A stretch of 64,000 nucleotides of DNA, from positions 6,688,785-6,752,784 of the forward strand of contig OZ244950.1 in NCBI GenBank assembly GCA_965222435.1, in the 5' to 3' direction. Position 1 is the first letter of the stretch, and each line of letters starts with the position of its first letter. Of the stretch, positions 10,340-35,934 are shown piece after piece. Under the pieces are notes generated by a model. The model had not been told where the DNA came from. It ran no database searches and saw only the letters and a program-made list of their open reading frames with translations. The stretch is from Candidatus Poribacteria bacterium. GTDB lineage: Bacteria > Poribacteria > WGA-4E > PCPOR2b. The translations under genes and the position numbers were made by a program.

Positions 10340-10500
10340 TTATTTCATCTTTGGTCAGTCAACTACCCCGCCCTGAAGGACGGTGCTTGTGATACCGTCC
10401 ACGGGGGCTTACGGGTTTCGCGCTTCTTTCCGTTACCGGTTTTTCGGGGGTGTTTGCTACCACCGCACCTCCACGCAAGGCTATAGCAGCCTTTTTGATA
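10340..10500 (-). ncRNA. Predicted omegaRNA (reRNA) of TnpB element 1, guide starting TGACCAAAGATGAAAT
   Basis: Overlaps the tnpB 3' end and right end; blocks GCCTTGCGTG, GAAGCGCG and CCGTCCTT.AGGGCGGGGTA..TGAC are conserved with element 2; boundaries approximate. Confidence 0.65.
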
Positions 10501-18288: not shown

Positions 18289-19194
18289 ATGAAAACACTC
18301 AGAAATATCTCAACAGTTATCGCATTTGCATTTATATTGGCAGGGATCTCCGGATGCAGTGGCTGCAATCCGCCCCCTGAACCGGCAAGCTTCAGCCCAA
18401 TGGAAGGTCCCGAAACCGGTGGGACAACCATCCGAATTGCGGGCGACAAGTTCGATATGAAAAATGGTGTTACGGTAAAAGTGGGTGGGAAGAATGCTAC
18501 CAGCGTAAATGTCCCCAGTAAAATGGAGATTACGGCAGTGACACCGTCGGGGATGGCAGGCGAATCGGTTTCAGTTGTTGTCACCAACAACGGCAACACG
18601 AAACCGGAGGGCACTGTCACAATGAGCCAGCAGTTCGCCTACACCGACGCAACCGCCCCAACAATCACGGGTGTCAGTCCTGCAGATGGAACGGTCATAT
18701 CGGAGTATGAAGATTCATTGAGTGTGAGTGTTCCTATATCAGTCACCTTCAGTGAAGATGTCGATAGTGCAGCTGGCTCTTTAACCGTTTCCGTTGAGTC
18801 AACACCGGATTCGGGTACACAACAATCTGGCGAGATCGCTGGCACTGTTTCTGGCAGCGGAAACACAATTATGTTTACTCCCAACGAACCGTATCGGTCA
18901 GGGCGTATGTACACTGTCAACATATCAGGTGTCAAAGACACCGCCGCTGCTGGTAATACCCTTGCATCGGGCAGCACCTTTAGCTTTACAATCGCTTCCC
19001 CGGAGAAGGTCAGCCGATACCTCGTGAAGGAAGGGGATACGCTTCCAATAATTGCTTCACGTCCGGAAGTATATGACGATGCCGAACTTTGGCCCCGACT
19101 TGCCGAAGCAAATCAGGACGATTACGATTTCGATCGTGCGCGGCTCTATCCAGGGCGGCAATGGTTATGGGTGCCGCGTGGATCTGCGTGGTAA
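18289..19194 (+). CDS. Lipoprotein with IPT/TIG, Ig-like (Big_5) and LysM domains
   Basis: Lipobox 'ISGC'; 'SFSP.EGPETGGTTIRIAG'; 'DATAPTITGVSPADG...ISVTFSE'; 'YLVKEGDTL..IA....YDDAELWP.LAEAN'. Confidence 0.8.
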   Translation: MKTLRNISTVIAFAFILAGISGCSGCNPPPEPASFSPMEGPETGGTTIRIAGDKFDMKNGVTVKVGGKNATSVNVPSKMEITAVTPSGMAGESVSVVVTNNGNTKPEGTVTMSQQFAYTDATAPTITGVSPADGTVISEYEDSLSVSVPISVTFSEDVDSAAGSLTVSVESTPDSGTQQSGEIAGTVSGSGNTIMFTPNEPYRSGRMYTVNISGVKDTAAAGNTLASGSTFSFTIASPEKVSRYLVKEGDTLPIIASRPEVYDDAELWPRLAEANQDDYDFDRARLYPGRQWLWVPRGSAW

Positions 19195-19230
19195 GACTAA
19201 TCTGTCATCTTGACGAAATGGGAGGCTATC

Positions 19231-19767
19231 ATGAAACTTCATTTTCACGCTGTGCTGGTAGTTTCACTTGCAGCCATGTTTTTGGCGGGGTGCAGCGTTC
19301 GCACAGTACCTCTTGAAGAGGAACGGATGGTCTATGAAGATGAGTATTACCGAGGATATGATAGCTTCCCGCCAAGTTTCGTCTATGACGCTTGGCAGCT
19401 GTCTCAGTATCGTCAATATTACGGCGATGCGTCTGAATTGGGCTATCGAATGAATATCGATCCAAATCCGAATGATAGCTACCGTGCAGATGAGACGCCC
19501 CTTCAACGTGCCCCCGCTCGAACGTCAATCCAAGGGACAACTCCGAATCGCCGCGTTGGTGAACGTCAGGATCGAACCCCAACTCAACGGACAATCAACC
19601 GAAGCCGGCACACTCGCTCGAATCGTATAGCGGCTGAATCCGCAGATAGCAGGAACCGCCTACGGAGGCAATTGGAACAACGTCACCGCCAACGGACGAC
19701 AAACAGGGTGGAGGATGAAGACCGGGAGGCTCAACGCCGAACCACCCGTCGCCGTGCTAGACGGTAG
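19231..19767 (+). CDS. Hypothetical lipoprotein with an Arg-rich disordered tail
   Basis: RBS GGGAGG; lipobox 'LAGC'; basic C-terminal half. Confidence 0.65.
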   Translation: MKLHFHAVLVVSLAAMFLAGCSVRTVPLEEERMVYEDEYYRGYDSFPPSFVYDAWQLSQYRQYYGDASELGYRMNIDPNPNDSYRADETPLQRAPARTSIQGTTPNRRVGERQDRTPTQRTINRSRHTRSNRIAAESADSRNRLRRQLEQRHRQRTTNRVEDEDREAQRRTTRRRARR

Positions 19768-19800
19768 ATTTCCCAAATTTTGAAAGAAGTTCATGCAATT

Positions 19801-19840
19801 AAAAAAGCCATGTAGAATATTCTACATGGCTTTTTTATTT
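19801..19840. terminator. Bidirectional rho-independent terminator
   Basis: AAAAAAGCCATGTAGAA-TA-TTCTACATGGCTTTTTT, a perfect palindrome between convergent genes. Confidence 0.85.
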
Positions 19841-19861
19841 TTAGGACTTACGCAGCCAACT

Positions 19862-19884
19862 GTAGGCGGGGCATCTTGCCCCGC
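19862..19884. repeat. GTAG-type REP at the left edge of the defence island
   Basis: GTAGGCGGGGCATCTTGCCCCGC; near-identical copy at 48045-48068. Confidence 0.7.
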
Positions 19885-19967
19885 ACTCTGCGGTCATCTG
19901 AATCAAACGATTCTTGTCAAAAAACTCGGTTCCTGTTGTGCGATTTTTGAACATAATCAGAGGGGCG

Positions 19968-20345
19968 TTAAGACGATTCCAGAAGTGTCTTGATGTACTC
20001 TTCAATCCTCACCGCATGATTGACTAGCCTTGTGACCTCTTGAGGTTCGTGAGTATCCTCCTCATATCGTGCCTGTATGCTCGCCATGTATAGTGCAGAA
20101 TACTCTCTGCGTATACGTCCAAGATGGTTCTGGACCTGTTGACCTCTTGTCTTGTGCCTTTTATCGTGCCCTTCGCGGTCAATCCCCTGTTTTGCAAAAT
20201 AAGCATCAACGGCGTGTAAAGCTTTGTAGAAAGCGAGCGTTACAATCCAATCACCATGTTGAGGCCTATTTTGAGATTGTTGAAGATCGGAAAGGGCAAG
20301 TTGTGTTCTGTTTTGCTTATCTATATGTGCTTCCGCTGTTGGCAT
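19968..20345 (-). CDS. HEPN-domain protein (putative toxin/RNase)
   Basis: 'DWIVTLAFYKALHAVDAYF...H..R' and 'Y..LY..S..ARYE', a HEPN-like pattern; start set at ATG 20345. Confidence 0.6.
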   Translation of the reverse strand: MPTAEAHIDKQNRTQLALSDLQQSQNRPQHGDWIVTLAFYKALHAVDAYFAKQGIDREGHDKRHKTRGQQVQNHLGRIRREYSALYMASIQARYEEDTHEPQEVTRLVNHAVRIEEYIKTLLESS

Positions 20346-20431
20346 GTGGGTAATTCCTGTTTTCATCCCTCCTCAACAGGGAGTTTAGAAGGAATCGGGG
20401 AATATAGAGAGGCTAGGGTCTAGGTAAAAGT

Positions 20432-21016
20432 TTAATAAAAACGGTCAAAATCGTCCAGTTCAAGATCCTTTTCTGAGCGTTTATATTCTACATGAAAATA
20501 CAGCGGGCGAAATTTCAGATTTATCTCCAGGTCAATTCCAGCTAACTGCTCAATTCGATCCACAGAATATTCTGAAATTACAATTATCACATCTGCGTCC
20601 TTGCCATTAATTTTTATGTAACCTTCTTGGACATAAGGGATTTTTTCCAATCTCTCTTTATAAAGTTGTTTCAGTTCTTGCCAAGCCGGGGGTTCAACCT
20701 CCTGAATAATCTGTTTGAGGAACTTATATTCCTGAGATTTTGCAGCACTTCCCCCCAATTCCTCATAACGGGCAACAATTTTTTCACACAAGTCTGATAC
20801 TGCCGCTTTCACGCTGTCACCCATGCCACATAGCTCGATATCATCGTAGGTAGCGGTCACAGTATCATCCGCTCTTTCGATTAAGATCGGGATTGGCTGG
20901 CGCAATTGGTAAGAGGGATGTCGAAGATTTTGGACCCAACGGGTTTCAGGAAGTTGACGAAACTCTGAACGAATTATTTCCTTTACTTGTAAAGGTTTCA
21001 AATCCTCAAGTGTCAC
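20432..21016 (-). CDS. Putative antitoxin: HicB-like N-terminal module plus a degenerate MNT-like C-terminus
   Basis: 'TVTATYDDIELCGMGDSVKAAVSDL' (HicB-like) and 'DVIIVISEYS...I..KF..LYFHVEY'; lies directly upstream of the HEPN gene. Confidence 0.45.
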   Translation of the reverse strand: MTLEDLKPLQVKEIIRSEFRQLPETRWVQNLRHPSYQLRQPIPILIERADDTVTATYDDIELCGMGDSVKAAVSDLCEKIVARYEELGGSAAKSQEYKFLKQIIQEVEPPAWQELKQLYKERLEKIPYVQEGYIKINGKDADVIIVISEYSVDRIEQLAGIDLEINLKFRPLYFHVEYKRSEKDLELDDFDRFY

Positions 21017-21083
21017 TGTTGCCTCCTAATTATGATTCATCTCGCCACTGTATGCGGCTTTAGAGCAGAGGTTGAGGTGCCTG

Positions 21084-21677
21084 CTATGGCCAATCCAGAG
21101 GACGGCCGCAGTAGCCCGTATCGTTGAGACTGCGAACCCAAGCAATCAATTCTGTAACAGCATCTTCTAGAAAATTACACTTATGCCCCCGCCAATTATA
21201 GCAAAAATTAACCCCGCAAAACATAGGAAGTCTTGGTCCGCCTTCCCCCCAGTAAATGAAATCATCGCTGACTAGGACTCGGTCTACCTGTGTGTCATGG
21301 CACATGTTATTATGATTCGGAGTTCCATCACCATGGCTGTGATGAGAATCTATCTGGCACCATTCATTTGAGACAGGAACCGTATAATAAATGTTGTCGC
21401 CGAAGGCTTTTTTTAGACTAGCATACATATCAGGACGTTTGTTAAAAAAACGAGGATCATTCCAGTATTCATCAAACGAAATTGTCTCGGTCACACGCAT
21501 GGCGTAGACAAGATATCCATTCCGTTGTTTGGTTTTTGACCCGGTGCCAATGACCCAGTCGCCACCTGAGGCGGTCTTGCGAATTTTGGGTTTGCAAGTT
21601 GCTAGTGTGCAGAAGCCATAGAATGGGTTCGGAGCGAAGCCGAAGTCTCTTGCCACTATGTATGAATATAGTTTCAC
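21084..21677 (-). CDS. Nmad2 (nucleotide modification associated domain 2) protein
   Basis: Signature 'LYSY.VARDFGFAPNPF.G.CTLATCKP.IR..A..GDWV.G', 'GDNIY', 'VLVSDDFIYWG'. Confidence 0.8.
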   Translation of the reverse strand: MKLYSYIVARDFGFAPNPFYGFCTLATCKPKIRKTASGGDWVIGTGSKTKQRNGYLVYAMRVTETISFDEYWNDPRFFNKRPDMYASLKKAFGDNIYYTVPVSNEWCQIDSHHSHGDGTPNHNNMCHDTQVDRVLVSDDFIYWGEGGPRLPMFCGVNFCYNWRGHKCNFLEDAVTELIAWVRSLNDTGYCGRPLDWP

Positions 21678-21698
21678 GGTCCGATAGCCCCCTTACAC

Positions 21699-22172
21699 CT
21701 AACAAGAATGTCGCTTAATGATACGAGACCCCTGTCTTGATCCATCAGGTTGGTGCCACGCGTTGGATTCGCCGTTGATAGCGTCTATGATGCTCTCCCC
21801 GTTCCATCCTACAACTGCGTCGGCATAGTCTTCGAGGGCTTTCGGTAGTTCGCAATCTTTTGCCCCCTGTTCCCATACTCCAACTATTCTTTTTCCTTGC
21901 TTCTGTGCGTACTCGATTTCCCAATTCACCCACCAACTGTGTTTTGTATCCGGGGATACATAGACAACGAGCACACTTGCCCACTTTATACGTGGGGCAA
22001 GTATCTGGTACTTTATGTAGTTTTCAGCCTCGGCCGAGTTGGGACTGTCAGAAGTGACGGAGTCGTTTCGGACAGCCATCCCGTGTTCACCTGCAAGACT
22101 TTTGATTCGATTGATGCCTGCATCATCCTCGTGTATATGACTGATGAAGACGTTCCTGATTTGTTCCGGCAT
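21699..22172 (-). CDS. TIR-like protein (DUF1863/MTH538, Thoeris ThsB-like)
   Basis: 'RNVFISHIHEDD', 'I..RIKWASVLVV.VS..T..SWWVNWEI..A...GKRIVGV' with the catalytic Glu. Confidence 0.85.
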   Translation of the reverse strand: MPEQIRNVFISHIHEDDAGINRIKSLAGEHGMAVRNDSVTSDSPNSAEAENYIKYQILAPRIKWASVLVVYVSPDTKHSWWVNWEIEYAQKQGKRIVGVWEQGAKDCELPKALEDYADAVVGWNGESIIDAINGESNAWHQPDGSRQGSRIIKRHSC

Positions 22173-22175
22173 TGC

Positions 22176-22721
22176 TTACCTATCCTCCTCTGTTTTCTCT
22201 AGGTCTGTCAAGTCTTCCACTTCGGCGATATATGCCAATATACGGTTGTAGTTTTGCAACATCTCCTGCAAATTTTTCAAGTCGTCACGAAATTCCTCTC
22301 GTTTAGCCTCGTAATCGAAAGCACCGGCCAAGGATTCTTTATGCCACTTTGCGGTAAATGGCCGAACGACCTGATTCAGCACAGGTATGGCAACCTTGCT
22401 GAACGCTACAATCTTTCGCCCACGCCGGCGTAGAATTTCACGGGTAGTAGGAAAAAGCGAATATACACTGTCCAAGGCTGTTTGTTCATCTCCCTCTTTG
22501 GATGGTAATGCCTGAGTAGTGATTCTAGTTAGCATCTCAATATACAATTCCCAAGCTGCATCTCTGTCATCATCTTCAAACGATAGTTCAACATCAGCAA
22601 CCTTCAAATCTGTATCTTCGTCGGTCTTTTTGAACGATACTCCGGCTGCCACAACCGCCAAATTCACCTTCAGGTCAATGCGTTCCACCTTAAAGTCTTT
22701 GAATAGCTTCCTAAGATTCAT
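22176..22721 (-). CDS. Conserved helical hypothetical protein, first gene of the TIR-Nmad2 cassette
   Basis: 181 aa, 'DRDAAWELYIEMLTRITTQ...ALDSVYSLFPTTREIL...LNQVVRPFTAKWH'; 3-bp gap to the TIR gene. Confidence 0.7.
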   Translation of the reverse strand: MNLRKLFKDFKVERIDLKVNLAVVAAGVSFKKTDEDTDLKVADVELSFEDDDRDAAWELYIEMLTRITTQALPSKEGDEQTALDSVYSLFPTTREILRRRGRKIVAFSKVAIPVLNQVVRPFTAKWHKESLAGAFDYEAKREEFRDDLKNLQEMLQNYNRILAYIAEVEDLTDLEKTEEDR

Positions 22722-22834
22722 GTTTCAAGTCCTCCTCGAATAATGCAGAATAAGTGCAGAGTAACGTTTTAATGTAACTCTGATACCGGAAACCCGATAG
22801 CATATCAAATCCAACCACATTATGATCTATCTAA

Positions 22835-22928
22835 TACGCTCCGACAAACTCTCCACAATCCCAACCGTCTCCAAATTGACCGCAATGATCTTTCCAATCA
22901 ACTAGACAATGTATCGCGGGTCATTGGC
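22835..22928 (-). repeat. Degenerate copy of the 3' end of the RM gene
   Basis: Translates ANDPRYIV*LIGKIIAVNLETVGIVESLSE versus the RM C-terminus ANDPQYIVRLIGKVIAVSLETVGIVEELPE. Confidence 0.85.
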
Positions 22929-23490
22929 GAAACATATAGGGATATTTTCGATCGAGAGATTCATAGAATTGCTGCGTCGTAGTTGTTATTCGACGCTCTT
23001 TGCGCCAATTTTCTAAGTCTGTCATATCTGTTAGAACAGGCCATTTCCACAGATAAGATGGGAAATCCCGTTTCGTGTAAACAGATGTTAAGACTAAGAA
23101 CGTGCCCAAGTGTAACCCTTTTTCCATAGCGATACCAATTTCCAAAGGAACCCACCAAGAACGAACAGTGTTGTGAGAAACTACGGCGATTAAGCTATCA
23201 CAACACCCAATGATAGTATTTATGTAATCCACCAATTCCGGACCATCACCAGTAATATTAGAATCCAAAACATCCAGATATGCCGTCAATCCAGACTTTG
23301 CCAGTGTCTCTGCCACTTCCTGAGCAATGTATGTGTCATCACTTTTATGAGACACAAAGACATCCAGTTTTTCAACAGAAAGTTTAAGGCGCAACTCATT
23401 TATACGTCTTTCAAAATTATATTCTGTTAGATCTATTGTACTTCTAGTATAATCCCTGTAACCACTAGGGGTATAGATAGCTCGATTCAT
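22921..23490 (-). CDS. Stand-alone TIR domain protein (TIR_2-like)
   Basis: 'DVFVSHKSDD', 'GLTAYLD', 'LIAVVS.NT..SWWVPLEIGIA' with the catalytic Glu; RBS AGGAG. Confidence 0.85.
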   Translation of the reverse strand: MNRAIYTPSGYRDYTRSTIDLTEYNFERRINELRLKLSVEKLDVFVSHKSDDTYIAQEVAETLAKSGLTAYLDVLDSNITGDGPELVDYINTIIGCCDSLIAVVSHNTVRSWWVPLEIGIAMEKGLHLGTFLVLTSVYTKRDFPSYLWKWPVLTDMTDLENWRKERRITTTTQQFYESLDRKYPYMFRQ

Positions 23491-23559
23491 CGTATTTCTC
23501 CTGTCTTTATAGGTTTGTTTTTGCTTTGCTTACCACGAGGGTGTTGCCAGAAAATTTTG

Positions 23560-23615
23560 TAGATTTGACAAGATTTCCACAATCGCCAAACTGACCGCAA
23601 TCGCCTTTCAAATTA
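23560..23615 (-). repeat. Second, more decayed copy of the RM gene 3' end
   Basis: Translates I*KAIAVSL-AIVEILSNL versus IGKVIAVSLETVGIVEELPEL; shares CCAAACTGACCGCAATC and TCCACAATC with 23750-23790. Confidence 0.7.
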
Positions 23616-23716
23616 TCATGTGGATGTGATCAATGTCAGGTTTCTATGGATTCTTCGGCACTGCGGTTAATTTTGTTTTGGAAGCCTTCCCTTAGACGTT
23701 TCTTCATTTCTTGGGT

Positions 23717-26700
23717 TTAATGAGAAGGTGCCCGCAACTCTGGCAGTTCCTCCACAATCCCAACCGTTTCCAAACTGACCGCAATCACCTTACCAATTAG
23801 CCTGACAATATACTGCGGGTCGTTTGCACGGTTCGGGTCGTTGACGATGCCGCTGCGTTTGTCCGTCTTGATGCAATACTGGTTTATCACCCATTCCAAC
23901 GCAGACCGATTCCCAAGCTGATAATCAAACGCCTTCGCGGGTATCCCGTCGAGGGTCAGGAAATCGTTGTACACCAGCTGCGTTTTGTCTTTGGACAGCT
24001 TCATCTTCTCCACACGCCAATCGAGCGGCACTTCACGGTTTTCGATGAATACGAGCTCATATTCGGGTACCGCCTCATAGCCGATGTGGATTTCCCCTAA
24101 CTGTTGCCCTGCTTTAGCAAACCCCCAGAAGTCCGGCGCATGCGGTAGACGCGGCAGATCCCGCTTGAGGTTGGCTTCATATCGATCTCGATAATTGGGG
24201 TGATGTAGGAGACCGTAGACGTAATGGAAGATGTCCCACTTGGTGATTGCCTTGTCTCGGTAATGTGCGCGGAATTGTGCTAACGCCCAATCGGTGATGT
24301 TCTCGCGGCGGTTTGTCCCATCCTCATCGTAGGTATAGAAGGGAAAGCATTGGGTCTTTTCAAATGCCAGATCTATGTCGGGAATCATATTTGTTGTAAG
24401 ACAACCAAAACCTTTTCTATTACCAATACCAGCAACACAAATCACCCGATTTTCCGTTTCCGGTGTAGGGGAGATGGAGGGAAAGACATATACAACATCG
24501 TTCATCATTCTGTCAAAGTAGAGATTCAATTTCGTAAATGGCCGATAGAGGGATATTCTCCCCTTGTGGGCGGCATATTTGGTTGTTCGCTCTCGTTTCA
24601 GCTTCGCCTTTAAGTCGCGACTCCACTTGATTTTCTCGTCATCATAATTCACAAAATCATCAACGTTTGCGTTCTGATTTTCTCGATGTTGCCACTTGAG
24701 GACCTGTTCATTGTAGGTATCAATCATCCCGCTTATGCTTTCAGTTAGAACGTTTCGATTGAAGTTGTACGCCCACGCATCGCGATTAGTTTTAACACCG
24801 TTGCTATAAATCTTAAAAATCACATCCACCGCCTCACCTTTTGCTGCCTTCGCTTTCTTGGTTCCCATCGGGATGAAGGTTTCAAATTCGGCGTGAAGCC
24901 CTTCGGTCAGCCATGTATAACGTGTGTCAGGTTGAATGGTTTGCCAGTCTATATTACCGATGTGTTTGCGTTCATTCAGAAAATCGAATTTCTGTTTTTT
25001 GCTCCATAGATCATCGGTACGATAGTAAAAGATACGGGCAGAGACAGGGCTATCCCCGTGTGGGAGGGGCATCCCTGCCCCGATTATAGTAGGGCGATTT
25101 ATCGCCCGTCCGGTTTTCACAAATAGGTTGATGCTCACACCGACCCGTATCCCGAACACATTGGCATCCGAGACCTTCAATCCCCTCCGGGCATTTCCGC
25201 CTAAGTCCAGAATGTAAACCGCATCGAAATAGTCTGCGAGGTGTTTCCGCATCCCGTCAAACGCCACACCGTCAAGAAAGCTGTTGTTGGTCACAAAGGC
25301 GACAATACCCTCCTCTCCTATCCGGTCCGATGCCCACCGAATTGCCTTCACATAGGAATCGGAGAGTTTATTTTTATTTGTCGCTGCAGAATCTTTCGCA
25401 TAGGTATCCGCAACCCGCGCATCCATCGTTGGGTATTTCCGGTTTTTGTTATTGTCGTTCTCGTTGACCTGACCGACGTTATAGGGTGGATTGCCGATAA
25501 CCACAAACATCGGGGTACCCTTTTGGCTCTCAACACGCTGGGTGTTCTCCGGCGCGAAAAGCGGCAACTGTCGGTCCTCTGCCAATTCAAATGTATCCAC
25601 GAGGCAGATGCCCTCAAAGGAACGATACGTCCCCATTGTCTCATAAAATTCATGCTCAATGTTCATCGACGCGATGTAGTACGGCAGCAACATCACCTCA
25701 TTGCAGTGAAGTTCTGTTGCGTATTTATCCGCAAGCGCGGTTGGGCGAATCTCGCGCATCATCCGCACAATGAAATTGCCAGTTCCCACAAACGGATCGA
25801 TAATGTGGACATCTCTATCCGAAACCGTAGGGGCAGCCCTCGTGGCTGCCCGTTCTCCGTGTCCATTGCCAAATTCGGTCTTTAATATCTGATTCACGCT
25901 TCTCACCATGAAATCGACAATCGGCTGCGGCGTGTAGACCACCCCATGCGTATCGGCGACCTCCACCGAAAAGCCTTGAAAAAACTGCTCGTAGATCGTG
26001 TTGAGGAAACTCTGTTTTTGAGAGAAGTCGTTGATGGTCGCAGCTGCCCGTTCAATTGCGAGGTAAAAACGATCCAGGCTACGGAGAAAATCGTCACGGC
26101 TAAACGCCTGCTCTGTGAGTGTCTTGATAACGGCCTCGATCTCACGGGCGATGATATTGCGATCGGTGAAATCGGGGTTGCTAAACACGGTTCGGAAAAT
26201 CCGCTCGGTCAACAGATGCTGGATCAACATCTCCTCAACCGCCGCTTCGGAGAGGTTGGGATTGATCGATTGGCGACATTTCGCATAAAAATCCTCAAAC
26301 GCGGTGGTAAAGTGGGGGTTGGCAGCCCGTTCATTTTGGATTAGGGTTGCTAAACTGTCTCCAAGTGCAGGCACCTTGTTTTTGAACTGCGAAACCGCCT
26401 CCTCCCATTCGGTGTATTCTTGCGGACGGTGGGAAAAGAAGGTTTCGAGGACCCCTATCAGTTCCATCGGGTCATTCAGATCGACATCAAGTACCTCCTG
26501 ACCATTCTGCCAAAGGATGGCGCGTTGTGGGGTTTGGAAAAGGATGTTGTCGCGGGGGTAGCCTGCCGCAAACTTGCGCTGGACTTGCATTGGCAGGTTG
26601 TCGTGGATATCCTTCGCCTCCCAATAGCCGTGAGGTAATTGGAAATCGTCGATCAATACACCATCAACCACAATCCGCTTGTTTCGATTGACAGTTATCG

Positions 26701-26872
26701 AATGTTCAGGCACCAGGGTCAAGTTAAACTGCCGTGCACAGTATTCAAGCAGGGATTGAAATGCCGATCGGACAGCAGTTTCGTGCGTCACGTCAAGCCG
26801 GTCGAATTGCTTGAGTGCGGCGCGGTAGGCTTTGATTGGTTTGTGGGTGGGTTTGAGGGTAAGGGATGGCAT
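23717..26872 (-). CDS. Single-chain restriction-modification enzyme: nuclease + N6-adenine MTase + Type ISP-like C-terminal TRD, no helicase
   Basis: N-terminal 'VDG...GYWEAKD'; 'HGVVYTP', motif I 'DPFVGTGNF', motif IV 'GNPPY'; 'GVKTNRDAW', 'YRPF', 'Y...L+RDLPR'; start set at ATG 26872. Confidence 0.85.
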   Translation of the reverse strand: MPSLTLKPTHKPIKAYRAALKQFDRLDVTHETAVRSAFQSLLEYCARQFNLTLVPEHSITVNRNKRIVVDGVLIDDFQLPHGYWEAKDIHDNLPMQVQRKFAAGYPRDNILFQTPQRAILWQNGQEVLDVDLNDPMELIGVLETFFSHRPQEYTEWEEAVSQFKNKVPALGDSLATLIQNERAANPHFTTAFEDFYAKCRQSINPNLSEAAVEEMLIQHLLTERIFRTVFSNPDFTDRNIIAREIEAVIKTLTEQAFSRDDFLRSLDRFYLAIERAAATINDFSQKQSFLNTIYEQFFQGFSVEVADTHGVVYTPQPIVDFMVRSVNQILKTEFGNGHGERAATRAAPTVSDRDVHIIDPFVGTGNFIVRMMREIRPTALADKYATELHCNEVMLLPYYIASMNIEHEFYETMGTYRSFEGICLVDTFELAEDRQLPLFAPENTQRVESQKGTPMFVVIGNPPYNVGQVNENDNNKNRKYPTMDARVADTYAKDSAATNKNKLSDSYVKAIRWASDRIGEEGIVAFVTNNSFLDGVAFDGMRKHLADYFDAVYILDLGGNARRGLKVSDANVFGIRVGVSINLFVKTGRAINRPTIIGAGMPLPHGDSPVSARIFYYRTDDLWSKKQKFDFLNERKHIGNIDWQTIQPDTRYTWLTEGLHAEFETFIPMGTKKAKAAKGEAVDVIFKIYSNGVKTNRDAWAYNFNRNVLTESISGMIDTYNEQVLKWQHRENQNANVDDFVNYDDEKIKWSRDLKAKLKRERTTKYAAHKGRISLYRPFTKLNLYFDRMMNDVVYVFPSISPTPETENRVICVAGIGNRKGFGCLTTNMIPDIDLAFEKTQCFPFYTYDEDGTNRRENITDWALAQFRAHYRDKAITKWDIFHYVYGLLHHPNYRDRYEANLKRDLPRLPHAPDFWGFAKAGQQLGEIHIGYEAVPEYELVFIENREVPLDWRVEKMKLSKDKTQLVYNDFLTLDGIPAKAFDYQLGNRSALEWVINQYCIKTDKRSGIVNDPNRANDPQYIVRLIGKVIAVSLETVGIVEELPELRAPSH

Positions 26873-26894
26873 GGTGTAGGTTTCTGCAAATTCT

Positions 26895-27113
26895 TTAATT
26901 CGATAAATCCGCACTTGGGGTTTCTATCTGCTCATAGGACAGATCCGGCAGACTTGCCTGTTGATGGGCATGTTCGATGGTCATTGCCACCAGATTGCCA
27001 AAAGCATCCAGATCGATATAAATATTCTCGTTAATCTCTTTTGTCTCGGTCACTTCACGCTTTGAGAACTCAACTAGGGCAGTATCCGTATCATGAAAAT
27101 ATTTGACTTTCAT
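26895..27113 (-). CDS. DUF2283 family protein (putative antitoxin)
   Basis: 'MKVKYFHDTDTALVEFS....ETKEINENIYIDLD..GNLVAMTIEHA'. Confidence 0.8.
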   Translation of the reverse strand: MKVKYFHDTDTALVEFSKREVTETKEINENIYIDLDAFGNLVAMTIEHAHQQASLPDLSYEQIETPSADLSN

Positions 27114-27287: not shown

Positions 27288-29924
27288 CTAGGACTCATCA
27301 GCGATGGCAGCTTGCGCCGCAGCGAGTCGGGCAACCGGCACACGGAACGGAGAACAGGAAACATAGTCCAAACCTGAGTCGTGGCAGAAGATAACGGAAC
27401 TCGGCTCACCACCGTGTTCACCGCAGATACCGACTTTAAGATCTGCGCGAGTTTCGCGTCCTCTGTTTGTGCCGATCTGTACCAACTGACCGACACCGCT
27501 TTGATCCAGCACTTGGAATGGGTCATGTTCAAGGATGCCGCCATCCACATAGTCGCCCAAGAATTTGCCGGCATCATCGCGGCTCATCCCGAAGGTGGTC
27601 TGCGTAAGATCGTTCGTCCCGAAGGAGAAAAAATCCGCCTCCTGCGCGATTTCATTCGCGGTGAGTGCGGCTCTCGGCAATTCGATCATCGTCCCGACAA
27701 GGTATTCGACCTCAGTGCCAGTCTCCTCAAACACCTTCTTCGCAGCATCAACGACCACCTCACGCTGCAGCGCTAGCTCCTGCACATGCCCAACTAGGGG
27801 GATCATAATCTCAGGGATCGCCTTAACGCCGCGTTTGGTGACCTCGACAGCCGCCTCAAAGATTGCCCGCGCTTGCATCTCCGTGATTTCCGGATAGATA
27901 ATACCGAGACGACATCCACGGTGCCCCAGCATCGGGTTAAATTCGTGCAACGCTTCCCTTTGCTGGTACAATGTCTCAGCGGGAACACCGATTTTATCCG
28001 CAAGCTCCTGGACATCCTCATCGGTATGGGGCAGGAACTCATGGAGCGGTGGATCGAGTGTCCGAATGGTGACAGGGTAGCCGTCCATCGCTTCAAAGAT
28101 GCCGACGAAGTCCTCACGTTGGTAAGGAAGTAGCTTGTCGAGTGCTGCCTTGCGTCCTACCTCATCCTTTGCGAGAATCATCTCACGGACAGCATCAATC
28201 CGCTCTCCTTCAAAGAACATGTGCTCGGTACGGCAGAGACCGATCCCCTCCGCGCCGAACTCTCTCGCGGTACTTGAGTCGCTTGGGGTATCTGCGTTTG
28301 TGCGGACCCCAAGTTTACGGAACTCATCCGCCCATTCCATGAGTGTGCCAAAGTCACCACTCAGTTCAGGGTCAATCAACTGAACAGCTCCCTCAATCAC
28401 CTCGCCGGTGGAGCCGTTGAGCGTGATGTAGTCTCCCTCTGTCAGCCGAAGTCCGCCAGCCTGAAACTCCTTCGATGCTTCATTGACGATGATATTACTG
28501 CACCCTGCAACGCAGCATTTTCCCATACCCCTCGCGACAACCGCAGCGTGTGAAGTCATCCCGCCACGCGCCGTTAAAATGCCTTCTGCGGCGTGCATTC
28601 CGCCGATATCCTCTGGAGATGTTTCAGTGCGGACCAGAATCACCTTTTCACCGTCAGCCGCGAGTTCTTCGGCACGATCCGCTGTGAAGACCACTTTACC
28701 CACAGCAGCGCCGGGTGAGGCAGGTAGCCCCTTTGCAATCGACTCCACCGCTACCGCAGGATCGATCATCGGGTGGAGGAGTTGCTCCAGATCGTCCGGT
28801 GGGATGCGGGTCAGAGCGGTTGCTTTGTCAATGAGACCTTCGCTTACCATTTCAACAGCAGTGCGCACGGCAGCCGCACCGGTCCGTTTGCCGCTACGGG
28901 TTTGGAGCATATAAAGATGCCTGTCCTGAATCGTGAACTCGACATCCTGCATATCGCGGTAATGCGCCTCTAGGGTGTCCCCAATCCCCGTCAACTGTTC
29001 ATAGGCTGCCGGCATGACCCCCTGAAGTTCATCGATGGGGAGTGGTGTACGAATCCCCGCCACAACATCTTCGCCTTGGGCATTCATCAGAAATTCGCCG
29101 TAAAACGAGTTCTCGCCGGTTGAGGGATCTCGTGTGAACGCGACTCCGGTTCCCGACGTTTCGCCCATATTCCCAAAAACCATGGCTTGGACGTTGACCG
29201 CCGTCCGTCCGAGTTCTTCAGAGATGTTGTTCAATCGACGGTAGATGGTCGCCCGTTCATTGTTTGACGATTCAAAGACCGCGTCACGCGCCATGTCGAG
29301 CTGTCGCCGCGGTTCATCGGGGAAATTTGCTCCCGTTTCCTCTTTGACGAGTGTTTTGAACTCGGAAACCAACTCTGCCAGATCGTTCGCATCTAAGTCC
29401 GTATCAAGCGTGACGCCTTTGGCTGCTTTCTTCGCTTCCAAGAGATGCTCAAACGCCTCGTGTTCGACACCAAGCACGACATCGCCAAACATCTGCACAA
29501 ATCGGCGATAGGCGTCGTAGGCGAAACGTTCGTTCCCAGATTTTGCAGTCAGTCCCTTGACCGCATCGTCGTTCAAGCCGAGGTTGAGGATGGTGTCCAT
29601 CATACCGGGCATCGAAACCGCAGCTCCGGATCTAACAGAAACGAGCAGTGGATTTTCGGTGTCACCGAACCTTGCATCCATCGCGGCTTCTAGCTTTCGC
29701 AGATTCTCATCAATCTGTTCGTCAAGTCCATCGGGATATTGGTTACTGTTTTCATAGTATAGCTTACCAACTTCCGTCGATATTGTGAAACCGGGCGGAA
29801 CCGGAATGCCTAAACTGGTCATTTCGGCGAGGTTGGCACCCTTACCACCGAGCAGGCTTCTCATCTCCGCGCTGCCGTCGGTTTGATCGCCGCCAAAGAA
29901 GTAAACGTGTTTATCTTGAGCCAT
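27288..29924 (-). CDS. ppdK: Pyruvate, phosphate dikinase
   Basis: '[12 protein letters not shown]', '[14 protein letters not shown]', '[13 protein letters not shown]', '[11 protein letters not shown]', 'SFGTNDLTQ', 'GICGEHGG'. Confidence 0.98.
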
Positions 29925-31240: not shown

Positions 31241-32599
31241 CTAAATCGAATAAATCATCCGGCTGGCTTCTTCATATTCGGCTTGTAGGGGATCCGTGGA
31301 GAGGAAGAGTTTTTGGTAGGGTTCGTAAAGCTGGATATAGCTCCAATTAACACCGCACAGAATCTTTCGCTCATTTGCCAGCTTTACAAAACGACCGCGA
31401 AACTTTGCACGGGTGGTTTCCGGTGGGTGGTGCATCGCATGCTCAATCGCGTCATCGCTGACAATTCGTTCAACGTGCCCCTCTTTTTCGAGCTTGTAAT
31501 ACAATCCTAACTCCGGTCGAATATTGTGGTACTGTAAGTCAAGCATCAGAACCTTGGCGGAGTTCCACTTGAGTTGTCGACTCGCCACATAGGTTTCAAT
31601 CAATTTCTTCTTGATGACCCAATCGAGCTCTCGGTCAAGCTGCATCGGATCGGTTTCCAAACAGGTCAGCACATATTCCCACCGCGCCATAATCTGATCG
31701 GTGACTGGATCCGATTCTGCCTGCTCGAAATACTGTTTGGCGCATTCAAGGTATTCCCACTGCATCTCGACGCCTGAAAGCCGTTTACCGTTTTCTAATT
31801 CGATTTTACGGGTGCAGGTGATATCCTCTGAAATCTGCTGAATCGCCCGGACGGAATCGCGTAACGCAAGACGCTGCTTGATAAAGTTATCCTCGATCAT
31901 CCGCAAGATGATTGCCGTCGTACCGATCTTGAGGTAGGTAGCGAACTCCGACATATTGGAGTCACCGACGATTACGTGCAGTCGCCGATACTTTTCTCGG
32001 TCCGCATGCGGCTCGTCACGCGTGTTGATGATGCCCCGTGCCGTTGTCGTTGCAATTGAGATTTCTTCACGGATATGTTGCGCCCGTTGGGAGATTGCGT
32101 ATCCGCCCCGGTTGGTGGATTTGACTTTTCCTGCCCCGGCGAAAACTTGGCGCGTCACAAAGAAGGGAATGAGTTGCGAAGCGAGTTGGCGAAAGCTTAC
32201 ACGGCGATCCATCAGATAGTTCTCATGACAGCCGTATGTGTTGCCGGGCGTATCGGTATTATTCTTGAAAACCGAAATCCGTCCAAGAAATCCGTCGGCT
32301 TGCATTTTCCGCTCTGCCGCAACAGAAAGTCGATCAATAATCCGCTCGCCGGCTTTATCGTGGCTAACGAGGTCGCTCACGTTATCACATTCGGGCGTTG
32401 CATATTCGGGGTGGCAACCGATGTCCTGATAAAATCGAGCACCGTTCTCCAGAAAAACATCTGGATACATCCGTCCGGAAATAATCTCCCGAAAAAGATA
32501 CATTACTGCATTTTGGATCGACAACGCTTTACCACCGCGCCGATCCGACGTGCAGATGATCCCATATTCGTTTTCTAGACCATAGATCCTTCGGTTCAT
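31241..32599 (-). CDS. pafA: Pup--protein ligase
   Basis: 'RRIYGLENEYG', 'FLENGARFYQDIGCHPEYATPEC', 'GCHENYL', 'INTRDEPHAD..KYRRLHVIVGDSNMSE'. Confidence 0.93.
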   Translation of the reverse strand: MNRRIYGLENEYGIICTSDRRGGKALSIQNAVMYLFREIISGRMYPDVFLENGARFYQDIGCHPEYATPECDNVSDLVSHDKAGERIIDRLSVAAERKMQADGFLGRISVFKNNTDTPGNTYGCHENYLMDRRVSFRQLASQLIPFFVTRQVFAGAGKVKSTNRGGYAISQRAQHIREEISIATTTARGIINTRDEPHADREKYRRLHVIVGDSNMSEFATYLKIGTTAIILRMIEDNFIKQRLALRDSVRAIQQISEDITCTRKIELENGKRLSGVEMQWEYLECAKQYFEQAESDPVTDQIMARWEYVLTCLETDPMQLDRELDWVIKKKLIETYVASRQLKWNSAKVLMLDLQYHNIRPELGLYYKLEKEGHVERIVSDDAIEHAMHHPPETTRAKFRGRFVKLANERKILCGVNWSYIQLYEPYQKLFLSTDPLQAEYEEASRMIYSI

Positions 32600-33306: not shown

Positions 33307-33368
33307 CTACTCCCCCCTCAAATTGCAGATGTCGTTATCAGTAACCCTCAAAGCTGCTTCATCGGGAT

Positions 33369-34223: not shown

Positions 34224-34420
34224 TACTCTCCTCCTCGTTGGATGTAATTCTCGACAAATTCTTCTGAGTCTTCTTCCAAGATTTCGTCGATTTCATCAAG
34301 GATTTGATCGAGATCTTCTTTAATCTCTTCACCTTGCTCTACCACTTCTTGATCCGGTTGAACTTCCTCAGTATCCTGAGTCCGTTTGTCTCTTTGTTCC
34401 TGTTGCTTTTCGGCTGGCAT
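34223..34420 (-). CDS. pup: Prokaryotic ubiquitin-like protein Pup
   Basis: 65 aa, acidic, 'LDQILDEIDEILEEDSEEFVENYIQRGGE'; lies between dop and prcB. Confidence 0.93.
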   Translation of the reverse strand: MPAEKQQEQRDKRTQDTEEVQPDQEVVEQGEEIKEDLDQILDEIDEILEEDSEEFVENYIQRGGE

Positions 34421-34435
34421 GTTGCTTCCCTCCTT

Positions 34436-35926: not shown

Positions 35927-35934
35927 AATCTGTC

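Follow-up and report, generated by a model that had tools for sequence, protein, structure and literature searches.

Defence islands are usually ascribed to integrase-bearing mobile elements or to fixed chromosomal hotspots. Genomic islands and tycheposon-like elements target the 3′ end of a tRNA or protein gene, where tandem islands come to be separated by partial copies of that gene. A further route, insertion with long target duplication, is said to have been described by Nobusato et al. in 2000. The account in PMC2853133 is of long direct repeats (>30 bp and up to ~400 bp), variable in length, that flank a gene unit, align with a single copy in an insert-free related genome, can extend over a gene's 3′ end and are accompanied by neither transposase nor integrase. 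Gene fusions at the junction and allelic substitution of the TRD in a Type IIG gene are reported there too (PMC2853133; Furuta, Abe & Kobayashi 2010, NAR 38:2428).

The loci considered here, one of which lies in the window (the whole 64,000-nucleotide stretch of Candidatus Poribacteria DNA that was analysed), resemble Kobayashi's insertion with long target duplication in their flanking repeats of variable length, their empty relatives and the lack of mobility genes in what was scanned. Unlike the cases presented in PMC2853133, in which the RM system is the cargo and the targets are scattered, the 3′ end of an RM gene is here the recurrent target. Likewise, the cargo consists of other defence genes (TIR, SIR2-STAND and ThsB-Nmad2), the insertions stack into a tail-punctuated array, and two phyla are involved. 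Where that paper screens for inserted units with both R and M genes, the units found here hold TIR, SIR2+STAND, ThsB+Nmad2 and unknowns.

Islands of the kind that enter gene 3′ ends share with these loci the partial copies of the target's end between cargo units, the insert supplying or duplicating that end and the target gene staying intact. Such islands depend on a fixed att core and a recombinase of the tyrosine or serine type, whereas here no recombinase was found in the ORFs scanned, the repeats vary and the junctions show microhomology. As in integrons (attI, attC and IntI), promoterless or compact single-gene cassettes pile up in one orientation at one locus; unlike integrons, the loci examined revealed no IntI, no attC-like hairpin and no cassette-borne site, and the repeats copy the target, not the cassette. 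Defence-island hotspots also have variable defence cargo between conserved genes and empty and filled states among relatives (PMC10121019). Such hotspots mostly hold mobile elements with integrases, whereas the present hotspot tracks a gene family (any paralogue, in two phyla) and not a position.

The RM enzyme of the window is predicted to be a Type IIG-like methyltransferase/restriction fusion with a Type ISP coupler and a C-terminal specificity domain (Pfam, PADLOC); its N6-adenine methylase core, ISP coupler and Type_ISP_C, all in one polypeptide, place it in Type IIG / Type ISP-C. It had been predicted that the 3′ end of this gene recurs twice downstream in direct orientation, once as a shorter, decayed copy with a 9-bp deletion, and both copies were recovered (Table 1). 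A repeat search of the window returned a 78-nt direct repeat between 22851-22928 and 23750-23827 (82% identity) and a third, 31-nt copy at 23583-23613 (81-84%). A DNA profile of the RM 3′ end (258 nt, aligned from 10 genes) was searched with nhmmer over both strands of the window and 79 loci (547 kb); it matched tail 2 with E 5.1e-17 and tail 3 with E 6.4e-5, the one further match in the window (E 0.097) being noise. In that search no locus gave an antisense match, and every extra tail copy lay in direct orientation downstream of an RM gene. The minus strand of tail 2 reads ANDPRYIV*LIGKIIAVNLETVGIVESLSERIR*, the peptide originally given, and that of tail 3 reads KAIAVSLA---IVEILSNL, the 9-nt gap being relative to the RM gene.

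Table 1. Features of the RM locus and its surroundings, in positions of the window
Feature	Position	Strand	Description
Upstream backbone ppdK	27288-29924	-	Pfam; relatives' loci
Upstream backbone DUF2283	26895-27113	-	overlaps RM start
Resident RM gene	23717..26914	-	1065 aa; Pfam Type_ISP_C 5e-106, ISP_coupler, N6_Mtase, Eco57I; PADLOC REase_MTase_IIG 4e-238
Tail 1	23750..23830	-	conserved terminal ~30 codons of resident RM gene (…ANDPQYIVRLIGKVIAVSLETVGIVEEL…)
Native spacer after RM stop	23665..23716	-	52 nt; common to G003 orthologous locus; ends …AAAATTAACC
Inserted block	21088..23664	-	~2.58 kb: tail 3, TIR1, tail 2, p181, ThsB, Nmad2
Tail 3	23573..23628	-	decayed copy, profile 163-227; 9-nt deletion
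TIR1 leader	23491..23572	-	ribosome-binding site; weak likeness to G176 TIR cassette leader (local alignment z 3.3)
TIR1	22921..23490	-	189 aa, intact, TIR-domain (ThsB-like); Pfam TIR_2 2e-10; PADLOC ThsB 1e-11
Tail 2	22838..22927	-	90-nt copy, profile 149-238; in-frame TAG; begins at TIR1 stop codon
Spacer tail 2-p181	22722..22837	-	116 nt
Three-gene cassette	21084..22721	-	p181 + ThsB-type TIR + Nmad2; Pfam/PADLOC
p181	22176-22721	-	family: none assigned
ThsB-type TIR	21699-22172	-	Pfam/PADLOC
Nmad2	21084-21677	-	Pfam/PADLOC
Backbone p194	20432-21016	-	Pfam scan, comparison with orthologous loci
Backbone HEPN	19968-20366	-	Pfam scan, comparison with orthologous loci

Tail 2 shares 82% identity with tail 1 and 89% with the RM tail of G011. 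Tail 3, of which ~30 nt are alignable, is 90% identical to tail 1 and 81% to tail 2, and an alignment test gave no RM-like sequence upstream of it (z -0.8 and -0.6). Mismatches between tails 1 and 2 are of all kinds in the pairwise alignment, and identical runs between paralogue tails are short, about 18-20 nt. Tail 2 is taken as non-coding because a related strain has 8 nt inserted within it. An origin of the copies as assembly artefacts, foreseen as something that would undo the prediction, is ruled out by unitigs with 0 differences in the probable source run, X11, and by its even depth (143-171 over the cargo and 156-163 in the flanks); one unitig (22674-23479) crosses tail 2 and another (23450-23855) crosses tail 3, the RM stop and the RM tail.

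The two orphan tails belong to a block that was inserted beyond the RM stop, so they came in with it and were not left as scars by the resident gene. This ~2.58-kb block is missing from 7/7 orthologous loci of genus relatives, and TIR1, p181, ThsB and Nmad2 are each found in none of the seven; the expectation that cargo at orthologous loci would vary is borne out, in that it is variable or none. The left junction falls between AACC and GCAG, 52 nt past the resident stop, and the right one inside a CCATA microhomology at the Nmad2 stop, without long target duplication. The native spacer was followed by blastn to 23692 and extended by the G003 alignment (local score z 5.0), its fine boundary being set by eye. 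Backbone p194 comes after the RM gene in six of the seven loci, directly in five and beyond a 4.8-kb insertion in G008; G011's p194, directly after the RM gene, is truncated. The 116-nt spacer that follows tail 2 shows no relation to the native spacers found downstream of the RM gene in G003, G005, G014 and G017 (z 0.0 to 2.1).

Tail 2 had been thought to supply the stop codon of the TIR gene. A TGA does lie within its first bases, but the C terminus of TIR1, ...YPYMFRQ-stop, is its native end, the same in 15 aligned homologues, and the gene is whole, tail 2 beginning at its stop codon. TIR1 is single-copy in the source genome and was found in none of the other 175 genomes sampled from the phylum; its homologues P0001-P0004 are 88% identical. 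A sponge-metagenome contig from another study has ThsB-p181-tail 2-TIR1-tail 3 at ~93% identity. ThsB and Nmad2 are adjacent in five other genomes of the phylum (G167, G073, G092, G138 and G152), each time close to a p181 homologue whose order and orientation vary. A Thoeris system (ThsA + ThsB) was rejected, as Pfam and PADLOC matched no ThsA effector near the window's two ThsB-like TIR genes, whose neighbours are p181 and Nmad2.

Elsewhere, filled sites can be set beside empty ones. In a Latescibacteria MAG, G176, of another phylum, the RM gene is followed by a 68-nt leader, a TIR1 homologue (61% aa), a tail copy (profile 158-241, E 6e-18) and a C5-methylase, the repeats being 82 nt long (75/82 identical). 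The RM frame exits the left copy and continues into the insert (…GLPELEGVGNKNNQSEAKRTEK*), and the right copy retains …GLPRLDIREVCHD*, its stop overlapped by the methylase ATG. The arrangement is exactly the same in G267, whose site is empty and whose 1160-aa RM frame runs up to a methylase 91% identical to that of G176. In the window, tail, leader, TIR and tail follow one another in the order seen in G176. The same junction holds 4.2 kb of cargo between 215-nt repeats (198/215) in G314; G260 has this cargo (89% over 4.1 kb; 854+498-aa) with a 30-nt repeat (29/30), and G321 has SIR2 and a PDC-M54A STAND protein there, without a repeat. In the window's own family, G042 has the order RM, SIR2_2, 1350-aa STAND, tail fragment (profile E 0.002-0.007), degraded ThsB-like gene, Nmad2 (73% to the window's Nmad2), 96-nt copy and DUF2806, the 6.2 kb of SIR2-STAND and Nmad2 cargo lying between 96-nt repeats (92/96). 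Four empty sites correspond to it (G023, G043 and two loci of G044), in which a single tail continues into DUF2806. The right copies of G176 and G042 align with the single tail of their empty-site relatives. Repeats in G176, G042 and G314 thus exceed the 30 bp of the published description, and that of G260 is only 30 nt.

These empty-site comparators prove target duplication upon defence-gene insertion into the RM 3′ end at loci other than the window. The events documented with repeats are the TIR insertion at G176, the 854+498-aa cargo at G314/G260, and G042; independent events are few because the two loci of G176 are one recent 6-kb duplication (96-97%) and G314 and G260 represent one event. 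Between phyla, cargo and RM genes have diverged about equally (55-61% and 66-68% aa), and the 91-97% identity of the repeats beside them would require recent insertion or gene conversion, which tells against target duplication. Direct downstream copies are rare, at 4 loci in 30 fully listed genomes (3 loci in 20 genus genomes, 1 in 5 further family genomes and 0 in 5 paralogue-rich genomes). In G012, tail-plus-spacer units form tandem arrays at two different RM loci, without cargo. An orphan tail in G008 sits between two SDR genes, a separate insertion in that genome carrying IS genes, and G007 has a 120-aa Type_ISP_C fragment.

Orphan tails are probably, then, target duplications that arose when defence genes were inserted at RM 3′ ends, those of the window having been imported with a 2.58-kb piece of an array. 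In this family the RM 3′ end abuts or overlaps the start region of the next gene, and foreign defence genes would enter that junction by illegitimate joining, without a recombinase, so that copies of tens to hundreds of nt of RM terminal sequence come to flank the insert. The left copy would complete the RM reading frame and the right copy would keep the native RM end and the next gene's upstream sequence; selection would keep both flanking genes intact. Repeated events and unequal recombination between copies would give cargo arrays punctuated by tails. In the window, tail 3-TIR1-tail 2 may have formed beside another RM gene that was followed by p181-ThsB-Nmad2, and a piece of that array may later have been joined, through short microhomologies, to the site 52 nt beyond the resident gene, both orphan tails now being, on this account, non-coding and decaying passengers. 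Tail 3 may be the left partner of tail 2, but by analogy only, since it is alignable over ~30-56 nt, is no closer to tail 2 than to tail 1 and has no RM-like sequence upstream. The seven genus relatives are empty for the 2.58-kb block, the empty-site pairing being confined to G176 and G042, and neither donor locus nor empty site for the tail 3-TIR1-tail 2 module was found in the genomes compared.

It is unlikely, though worth weighing, that the orphan tails are instead remnants of tandem full-length RM paralogues whose bodies were deleted or overwritten by cargo, with no mechanistic tie between the two. The RM family is large, with up to 19 matches in one genome, and it is decaying, with many fragments of both ends; full-length paralogues do stand head to tail (G073 has four tails at ~3.4-kb intervals, and the genomes examined have five more pairs or triples), some orphans, such as those in G008 and G007, are plain remnants, and the window itself has no empty site to set against this reading. 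Against it, the right copies in G176 and G042 align with the relatives' single tail, the RM frame runs from the left copy into the insert, and the copy pairs within these two loci are 91-96% identical when paralogue tails reach 74-83%. The G314 copy matches its own RM end at 92% and that of G267 at 79%. Decay would not predict that cargo stop codons abut the copy, or that extra copies near RM genes are all direct and downstream.

The mechanism of the original prediction, if acting in place, would have new RM/TRD alleles recombine upstream, the right end joining illegitimately near the old gene's end, and leave the old tail with its cargo downstream. The RM gene is indeed mosaic, sliding identity against 9 alleles/paralogues showing variable blocks near aa 345-365, 590-660 and 720-850, and TRD exchange between lineages is evident: aa 661-826 of the G011 allele are 94-99% identical to the window's RM, the remainder being 62-98%, mostly 74-92%, and in G017 the C-terminal half is 67% identical against 88% for the N-terminal half. 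The best match of tail 2 is the orthologous tail of G011, and the X1 contig, which shares the window's cargo and tails, diverges at 23679, just below the RM stop, so that the RM end may differ among strains sharing cargo. The exchange itself is thus real, but on its 3′ side the exchanged block ends near aa 841-856, some 200 codons upstream of the tail and outside the last 30 codons. Against such a role for the tail as a recombination anchor in the window, the breakpoints relative to the seven genus relatives fall elsewhere, in the RM-p194 spacer and at the Nmad2 stop. The resident gene retains its 52 nt of native spacer and backbone sequence starts again right at the Nmad2 stop, so that the cargo looks like a single insertion into the RM-p194 spacer; the spacer after tail 2 does not resemble the locus's native ones. 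Empty sites, moreover, show cargo inserted into the 3′ end of an unchanged RM gene in G176 and G042, with the target duplicated. We regard abandonment of the tail by an incoming allele as quite unlikely, although the claim that tail copies punctuate defence cargo stands, the pattern recurring in these same two genomes.

Still less probable, and in our view very unlikely, is that homologous recombination between tails, whether by loop-out and Campbell-type re-entry or by unequal crossing-over, carries cargo with one tail from one RM paralogue or genome to another, with the tails as the active anchor and not a by-product. The G012 arrays at two RM loci are more alike (85-90% for the best array-to-array matches) than the RM genes (81%), orphans resemble the local RM tail (left and right copies of G176 are 91% identical, its right copy and tail 2 74%), and the same cargo types (TIR1 and SIR2-STAND) occur at RM tails in two phyla. 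Yet none of the 15 listed joints, out of 53 in four runs, has both ends in tail copies, the window's block entered elsewhere than at a tail, the identical runs shared by paralogue tails are short, and the two loci of G176 arose by the 6-kb duplication and not through a moving cassette.

No integrase or recombinase was matched by Pfam among 32 of the window's 52 ORFs (those at 62-39143, the other 20 lying beyond 39683), in keeping with the earlier remark that none was in view, nor in the cargo of G042, G176, G314 and G321; the same 32 ORFs include no reverse transcriptase. A TnpB and a DDE fragment, 6-13 kb distant, are the only mobile-element genes, and Pfam gave no others in window ORFs 18289-27113, the flanks to 39143, or the cargo of G042 and G314/G321. 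No tRNA gene is present, folds of four tails on both strands gave no excess DNA structure or hairpin (z -0.75 to +0.5), and junction comparisons revealed no shared cassette-end sequence. Repeat length varies from 0 to 215 nt (0, 30, 82, 96 and 215), and the junctions differ by several nt and show microhomology. The description "integron-like" does not hold against these observations. An integron was rejected for want of IntI in the ORFs scanned, attC-type palindromes and shared cassette ends, and an integrative island with an att site in the gene's 3′ end for the lack of recombinase, the variable repeats and the shifting junctions. A diversity-generating retroelement was rejected on the absence of reverse transcriptase from the scanned ORFs and the mismatches of all kinds, not confined to adenines, between tails 1 and 2, and a phase-variable specificity shufflon on the copies being all direct and of the conserved tail only, without the variable aa 720-850 block. 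That the tail is an att site for a recombinase encoded elsewhere is highly improbable on the same grounds, even though the right-copy 5′ edges cluster and the left junctions of three different cargos fall within ~2 nt after …GLPEL(E/D/G), the latter because the gap between the essential RM end and the start of the next gene is narrow.

The clustering of right-copy 5′ edges at profile ~142-163 (G000, G042, G002, G012 and G176) is not predicted by random joining, a point against the target-duplication reading. A doubtful extension of insertion with target duplication would make the last ~95 nt of the RM family a dedicated landing pad, with breaks or template switches favoured near aa 1030 and aa 1060, perhaps via the RM enzyme or host repair; defence genes of any kind might be taken up there, the pad being duplicated in the process, and the resulting pad-flanked cassettes might pass among paralogues and even phyla. 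If true, this would be integrase-free, family-borne cassette accretion, an integron-like function with coding sequence as the site.

Insertion with duplication of the RM end would mean that the hotspot moves with a gene family, the junction between RM gene and neighbour repeatedly acquiring TIR, SIR2-STAND and ThsB-Nmad2 with no recombinase found in the ORFs and cargo scanned. The duplication would explain the survival of both flanking genes after insertion, and Kobayashi's "long target duplication", so far an oddity of RM mobility, would become a means of assembling composite defence loci. Natural pairs of filled and empty sites make cooperation between the RM enzyme and its neighbours testable, and an orphan RM tail directly after a gene's stop codon may serve as a searchable signature for new defence genes in uncultured symbionts.

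Direct repeats of the 3' end of a restriction-modification (RM) gene flank inserted defence genes, and the empty site in relatives holds a single copy. The resident RM gene of the window ends …NRANDPQYIVRLIGKVIAVSLETVGIVEELPELRAPSH-stop on its coding (minus) strand. As originally predicted, a repeat search of the window found this end again downstream in direct orientation, as a 78-nt repeat of 82% identity (22851-22928 versus 23750-23827) and a third copy of 31 nt (23583-23613). On the minus strand copy 2 reads ANDPRYIV-stop-LIGKIIAVNLETVGIVESLSERIR-stop and copy 3, which lacks 9 nt, reads KAIAVSLA---IVEILSNL. Scored against a 258-nt DNA profile of the last part of the gene, built from 10 alleles and paralogues, copy 2 gave E 5e-17 (profile 149-238) and copy 3 gave E 6e-5 (profile 163-227); no antisense tail match was found in the window and 79 loci scanned on both strands (547 kb). 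The repeats are not an assembly artefact, an outcome that would have overturned the prediction: unitigs of the probable source run, X11, cross both copies with 0 differences (22674-23479 and 23450-23855), and the depth of the cargo equals that of its flanks. The positions of the tails and genes are collected in the table.

Features at and around the RM locus of the window
Feature	Position	Strand	Description
TnpB gene	10359-11576		
DDE-transposase fragment	16438-17235
Palindrome	19797-19840		22+22 nt (95%, no loop), perfect-looking
HEPN protein	19968-20366	same as RM gene
p194	20432-21016	same as RM gene	no family
Nmad2	21084-21677	same as RM gene
ThsB-type TIR gene	21699-22172	same as RM gene
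p181	22176-22721	same as RM gene	no family
Tail 2 (copy 2)	22838-22927	minus
TIR1	22921-23490	same as RM gene	TIR_2/ThsB-like
Tail 3 (copy 3)	23573-23628	minus
RM gene	23717-26914	minus	1065 aa, Type IIG-like; N6-methylase, ISP-coupler and Type_ISP_C specificity domains; its own end is tail 1
DUF2283 gene	26895-27113		20-nt overlap with RM start
Pup-proteasome cluster	31241-37758		complete; 4 kb from the island

The clearest filled and empty sites were reached through TIR1, which is intact and single-copy in the window's genome; its …YPYMFRQ-stop end recurs in the 15 homologues aligned with it, which are 183-204 aa long. The homologues P0001-P0004 are 82-88% identical to TIR1. None of the 175 other phylum genomes sampled has TIR1 at E <= 1e-25, and the sole relative in 28 other family genomes is 36% identical (in G005). 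A scan of metagenomes with the TIR alignment gave 14 loci, each at most 47% identical. A TIR scan of species-representative genomes also gave 14 loci, the two closest (61-64% aa) lying in G176, a Latescibacteria MAG from a different phylum. Both G176 loci consist of an RM gene (68-70% aa), a 68-nt leader with AAGGAGG, the TIR gene, a tail copy (profile 158-241, E 8e-18) and a C5-methylase gene; they arose by a recent segmental duplication (96-97% over ~6.3 kb), not as independent events, and were counted once. The left and right tail copies agree at 75 of 82 positions. The RM frame leaves the left copy into the insert (…GLPELEGVGNKNNQSEAKRTEK-stop), and the right copy keeps …GLPRLDIREVCHD-stop, where the RM stop and the methylase ATG overlap. 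The empty state is seen in G267, where a full RM gene (1160-aa frame) ending …GLDIREVRHD-stop has one tail, no TIR gene and the same RM-stop overlap into the methylase, at 91% identity. Judged by this comparison, the anatomy in G176 is diagnostic of a filled site.

The same junction holds other cargo elsewhere in the Latescibacteria, for which the list of tails is complete (54 rows from 39 of 168 genomes). With that list and a longer sequence, G314, once taken for a second empty site, proved to be filled: 4.2 kb encoding an 854-aa ORF of no family and a 498-aa ORF with an LmuA-like C terminus lie between 215-nt repeats, which are 92% identical to the genome's own RM end versus 79% to that of G267. 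The same cargo (89% over 4.1 kb) is present in G260 with a repeat of 30 nt only (29/30), G321 carries a SIR2_2 protein and a 1354-aa PDC-M54A STAND NTPase with no repeat, and in G305 the RM gene is degraded. The left junctions of three different cargos fall within ~2 nt, after …GLPEL(E/D/G).

A further case comes from the window's own family. Homologues of Nmad2 occur at E <= 1e-20 in 7 of 175 other phylum genomes. In G042 one of them (73% aa to the window's) lies in an island that runs from an RM gene whose frame ends …ENLPDLGIQEFSRDIGG-stop through SIR2_2 (390 aa), a NACHT/STAND PDC-M54A protein (1350 aa), a piece of decayed tail (profile 190-237, E 0.002-0.007), ThsB-like sequence in a degraded state and Nmad2 to a tail copy of 96 nt, which matches the RM gene's own tail at 92 of 96 positions and has a native-looking end …ENLPELG-stop, followed by DUF2806. 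The Nmad2 stop is a TGA in the first bases of the copy, like that of TIR1 in the window. Three congeners provide four empty sites (G023, G043 and, twice, G044), each with one tail, the stop, AAGGAGG and the DUF2806 start; the right copy of G042 aligns with them through the tail and past it, and the left copy diverges right after …TTGGGA. This amounts to proof that the outer tail pair is a target duplication, and the predicted punctuation of cargo units by tails is seen here as well. In this genus, g5, a DUF2806 gene regularly lies ~20 nt after the RM stop (4 loci in 3 genomes; L137 11852-12751, L149-L155); several of these genes hold internal stop codons, and DUF2806 may act as an accessory to the RM family.

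The ThsB-type TIR gene and Nmad2 directly adjoin in five other phylum genomes (G167, G073, G092, G138 and G152; 57-61% aa). Each of these loci (L138-L142), the counterparts of 21084-22721 in the window, also has a p181 homologue (52-60% aa) nearby, in an order and orientation that vary between genomes; a Type ISP-like enzyme is encoded immediately upstream of the set in G152. ThsA is absent, PADLOC has a model for neither p181 nor Nmad2, and p181-ThsB-Nmad2 is a candidate for a Thoeris-like defence system in which the effector is a different one.

The window's locus, with DUF2283 and ppdK upstream of the RM gene, is common to seven genus relatives, which have the Ig-domain genes p185/Big5 downstream in 7/7 and ppdK upstream in 6/7. 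The interval between the RM gene and p185 contains p194 alone in G014, G003 and G017, p194 and HEPN in G005, a truncated p194 in G011, a 4.8-kb stretch with IS-type genes and a 432-aa ORF ahead of p194 in G008, and tandem tail arrays without p194 in G012; TIR1, p181, ThsB and Nmad2 are absent from all seven. The DUF2283 gene is kept in 5/7 of these loci (93-96% aa) and is absent beside the RM paralogues examined (L052, L053); it may be a partner of the resident RM gene. The content of the locus is therefore variable, as the original prediction had it, but the break in the window lies at 23664, beyond tail 1, and not in the tail itself. Homology by blastn breaks at ~21061 and ~23692. By eye, on printed spacers, the native spacer extends for 52 nt beyond the RM stop, up to …AAAATTAACC (23665; local score versus G003 z 5.0) and resumes at ATAG…, the end of Nmad2 (CCA TAG, 21089-21084), the right junction falling within a 5-nt microhomology (CCATA) with the backbone's AACCATAA. 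Because five other Nmad2 cassettes end alike, with …DW(S/L)N(S/T)P-stop and CCATAA or CCATGA, the Nmad2 end of the window is native; with the microhomology, this rejects a precise cassette boundary lacking its own stop. The 2.58-kb stretch between ~23664 and 21088 has the boundaries of a single insertion in the spacer between the RM gene and p194; it is made up of ~36 nt of unassigned sequence, tail 3, a leader, TIR1, tail 2, a 116-nt spacer, p181, ThsB and Nmad2.

The 116-nt spacer is unlike the native spacers of the locus (z 0 to 2.1), and tail 2 is closer to the tail of G011 (64/72, 89%) than to resident tail 1 (64/78, 82%); tail 3, alignable over ~30 nt (90% to tail 1, 81% to tail 2), is too short to assign. 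Together with the single-insertion boundaries, the foreign spacer and the affinity of tail 2 suggest that the orphan tails are passengers of an imported block, and, with the native 52-nt spacer, they argue against the idea that the tails are scars of the resident gene. For the window alone, no donor or empty state of the tail 3-TIR1-tail 2 module was found, which leaves some room for two other origins. Decay of formerly tandem paralogues we hold to be unlikely. In-place replacement of RM alleles, as first proposed, is decidedly unlikely given the native 52-nt spacer and the foreign spacer after tail 2. An extension of tail 3 as decayed RM coding sequence to the edge of the block had no support (z -0.8 and -0.6), with nothing RM-like upstream. 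A search of 40 relatives with the cargo DNA matched p181 and tails only, and p181 homologues in genus relatives (57-60% aa) have no RM, ThsB or Nmad2 match within ~1.5 kb either side. By analogy, the imported module of the window would join the documented cases of target duplication.

Evidence from sequencing runs consists of contigs rather than raw reads, and runs X13 and X3 are thin over the cargo, their uncovered parts being uninformative. In a different study, a sponge metagenome yielded a contig of 1951 nt that aligns with 21796-23679 at ~93% identity (128 differences, 26 gap letters). It carries ThsB, p181, tail 2, TIR1 and tail 3, and goes on for 61 nt that do not resemble the window; the cargo-tail arrangement therefore persists in a diverged strain. 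A variant in another run has an 8-nt insertion within tail 2, so this copy is free of coding constraint. Homologous shuffling from tail to tail is improbable as the main driver, and none of 15 joints examined, out of 53, joins tail to tail. Joints at 21033->23752 in X11 (depth 134, side 40) and 19842->26881 in X3 (side 31) are better explained by relatives present in the same sample, whose site is empty or which lack the island altogether, than by excision. An X3 contig of a related organism connects DUF2283/RM-start with the p185 terminator across 36 other letters and lacks the 7 kb that hold the RM gene, the entire cargo, p194 and HEPN, so the RM gene is itself a variable island at the locus. 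At what looks like the island's far edge, region 19797-19886, which includes the palindrome, has a contig depth 6- to 770-fold above the 19500-19760 bin (4/4 runs; X11 6-fold) and many loose contig ends at 19841/19842 and 19875-19886, and looks like a dispersed palindromic repeat. On the other side, the Pup-proteasome cluster comprises two Pup-ligase family genes, two proteasome subunits and an AAA ATPase; such systems are unusual outside Actinobacteria and Nitrospirae-like groups.

The RM family is greatly expanded, with matches at E <= 1e-50 in 32 of 41 relatives and up to 19 per genome, many of them fragments; 146 of 176 phylum genomes have a tail match. In the window's genome (G000), a single 6.96-Mb contig, the enzyme is represented by three full paralogues (100, 75 and 74%), beside which there are a Type ISP relative of 1624 aa and another orphan tail, at 6.286 Mb. 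Some phylum genomes hold 17-25 copies, a striking expansion for a single-polypeptide RM enzyme; up to four full-length paralogues stand head to tail ~3.4 kb apart at G073:C1:1233071-1243568, and such arrays occur at five other places. In the specificity region (aa 661-826) the alleles of G000 and G011 (L046) are 94-99% identical, the rest of the gene being 62-98% (mostly 74-92%), and other alleles fall to 43-70% in this region, a pattern which indicates that the target-recognition block was exchanged recently between lineages.

Tail copies of other kinds are also found. In G012 the ppdK-locus gene and a paralogue are each trailed by tandem arrays with periods of 165-343 nt, in which each unit, joined through microhomology, is a tail fragment with ~100 nt of non-coding DNA and no ORF cargo. 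Each unit closes with ~43 nt in which AATCC repeats abound (…TTATCCTGAAAATCC…GATTCAGACAA; L074 4540-4622), a small dispersed repeat with nine hits in G000 (86-100% identity, 7/9 spanning 41-45 nt; for example G000:C1:5639647, 6060467 and 5642157, with 6 more). Orphan tails lie between two SDR genes in G008, as a plain remnant, and after a PD-T4-4/AriA-like ATPase and a 167-aa ORF in G002; G007 has a 120-aa Type_ISP_C fragment. The second orphan of G000 (L114 7336-7554 = G000:C1:6286335-6286553; profile 121-256, 49-53% aa) follows a 310-aa ORF of no family, overlapping its last ~38 nt, and precedes a 193-aa ORF, also of no family; no full RM gene matched within ~7 kb either side. Frequencies rest on 30 genomes, the phylum-wide search covering the best 150 of 893 matches. 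The complete genus list of 91 matches in 20 genomes comprises 65 in frames of 942-1155 aa, 21 below 900 aa and five in ISP-type genes, with extra direct copies downstream of a full gene at three loci (G000; G012 twice). Five further family genomes (28 matches) gave one such locus, G042, and five paralogue-rich genomes (101 matches) gave none.

These arrangements recall the 'insertion with long target duplication' defined by Furuta, Abe and Kobayashi (PMC2853133) as inserted gene units with long, variable direct target repeats, no mobility genes and an empty site for comparison; nine such cases among RM loci came from one screen and more from a second, and TRD substitution in a Type IIG gene is also reported. 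The present cases agree with three of the four criteria. The fourth, an insert holding R and M genes, does not apply because the RM gene is here the target. The literature searched describes neither RM-gene ends that repeatedly serve as targets for other defence genes, nor tail-punctuated arrays, nor RM-tail copies flanking such genes. Three separate events with repeats are documented, kin not being independent.

A site-specific system is very improbable. Right-copy 5' edges do cluster at profile 142-163 (G000 tail 2, G042, G002, G012 and probably G176), but others start at profile 10-121 (G314, the long units of G012, G007, G008 and the second orphan of G000); repeat length varies (0, 30, 82, 96 and 215 nt), junctions differ by several nt with short microhomologies, and no recombinase, conserved cassette ends or hairpin, attC-like or other, was found (hairpin z -0.75 to +0.5). 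No integrase was present among the 32 of 52 window ORFs scanned and no tRNA gene in the window; TnpB and the DDE fragment lie 6-13 kb from the left end of the block (21088) and ~2.7-8.4 kb from the HEPN gene. Other readings of the tails were rejected or found no support: a DGR-type VR/TR pair (mismatches of all kinds, no RT found), promoters or terminators of the next gene (4 promoter-like sites versus 2.9 +/- 2.0 expected; 0 terminators), and an extension of copy 2 into the 3' end of TIR1, a spurious 49-aa tblastn match with paralogue B, the TIR1 end being native.

We propose instead that selection would shape these sites. In this family the RM stop would overlap the start of the next gene or sit ~20 nt before it, placing that gene's ribosome-binding site in or just past the RM tail. 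Unless it duplicated the segment that the two genes share, an insertion there would kill one of them, and the survivors would be illegitimate insertions that carry such a duplication, which would account for the narrow clustering of left junctions. The clustering of right edges is left unaccounted for by this idea, so a hot-spot mechanism may still contribute. The repeats are 91-97% identical, and between the two phyla the cargo is 55-61% and the RM genes 66-68% identical (aa); because the repeats are far less diverged, either the insertions are recent and drawn from a shared cargo pool, or the copies have been kept alike by conversion.
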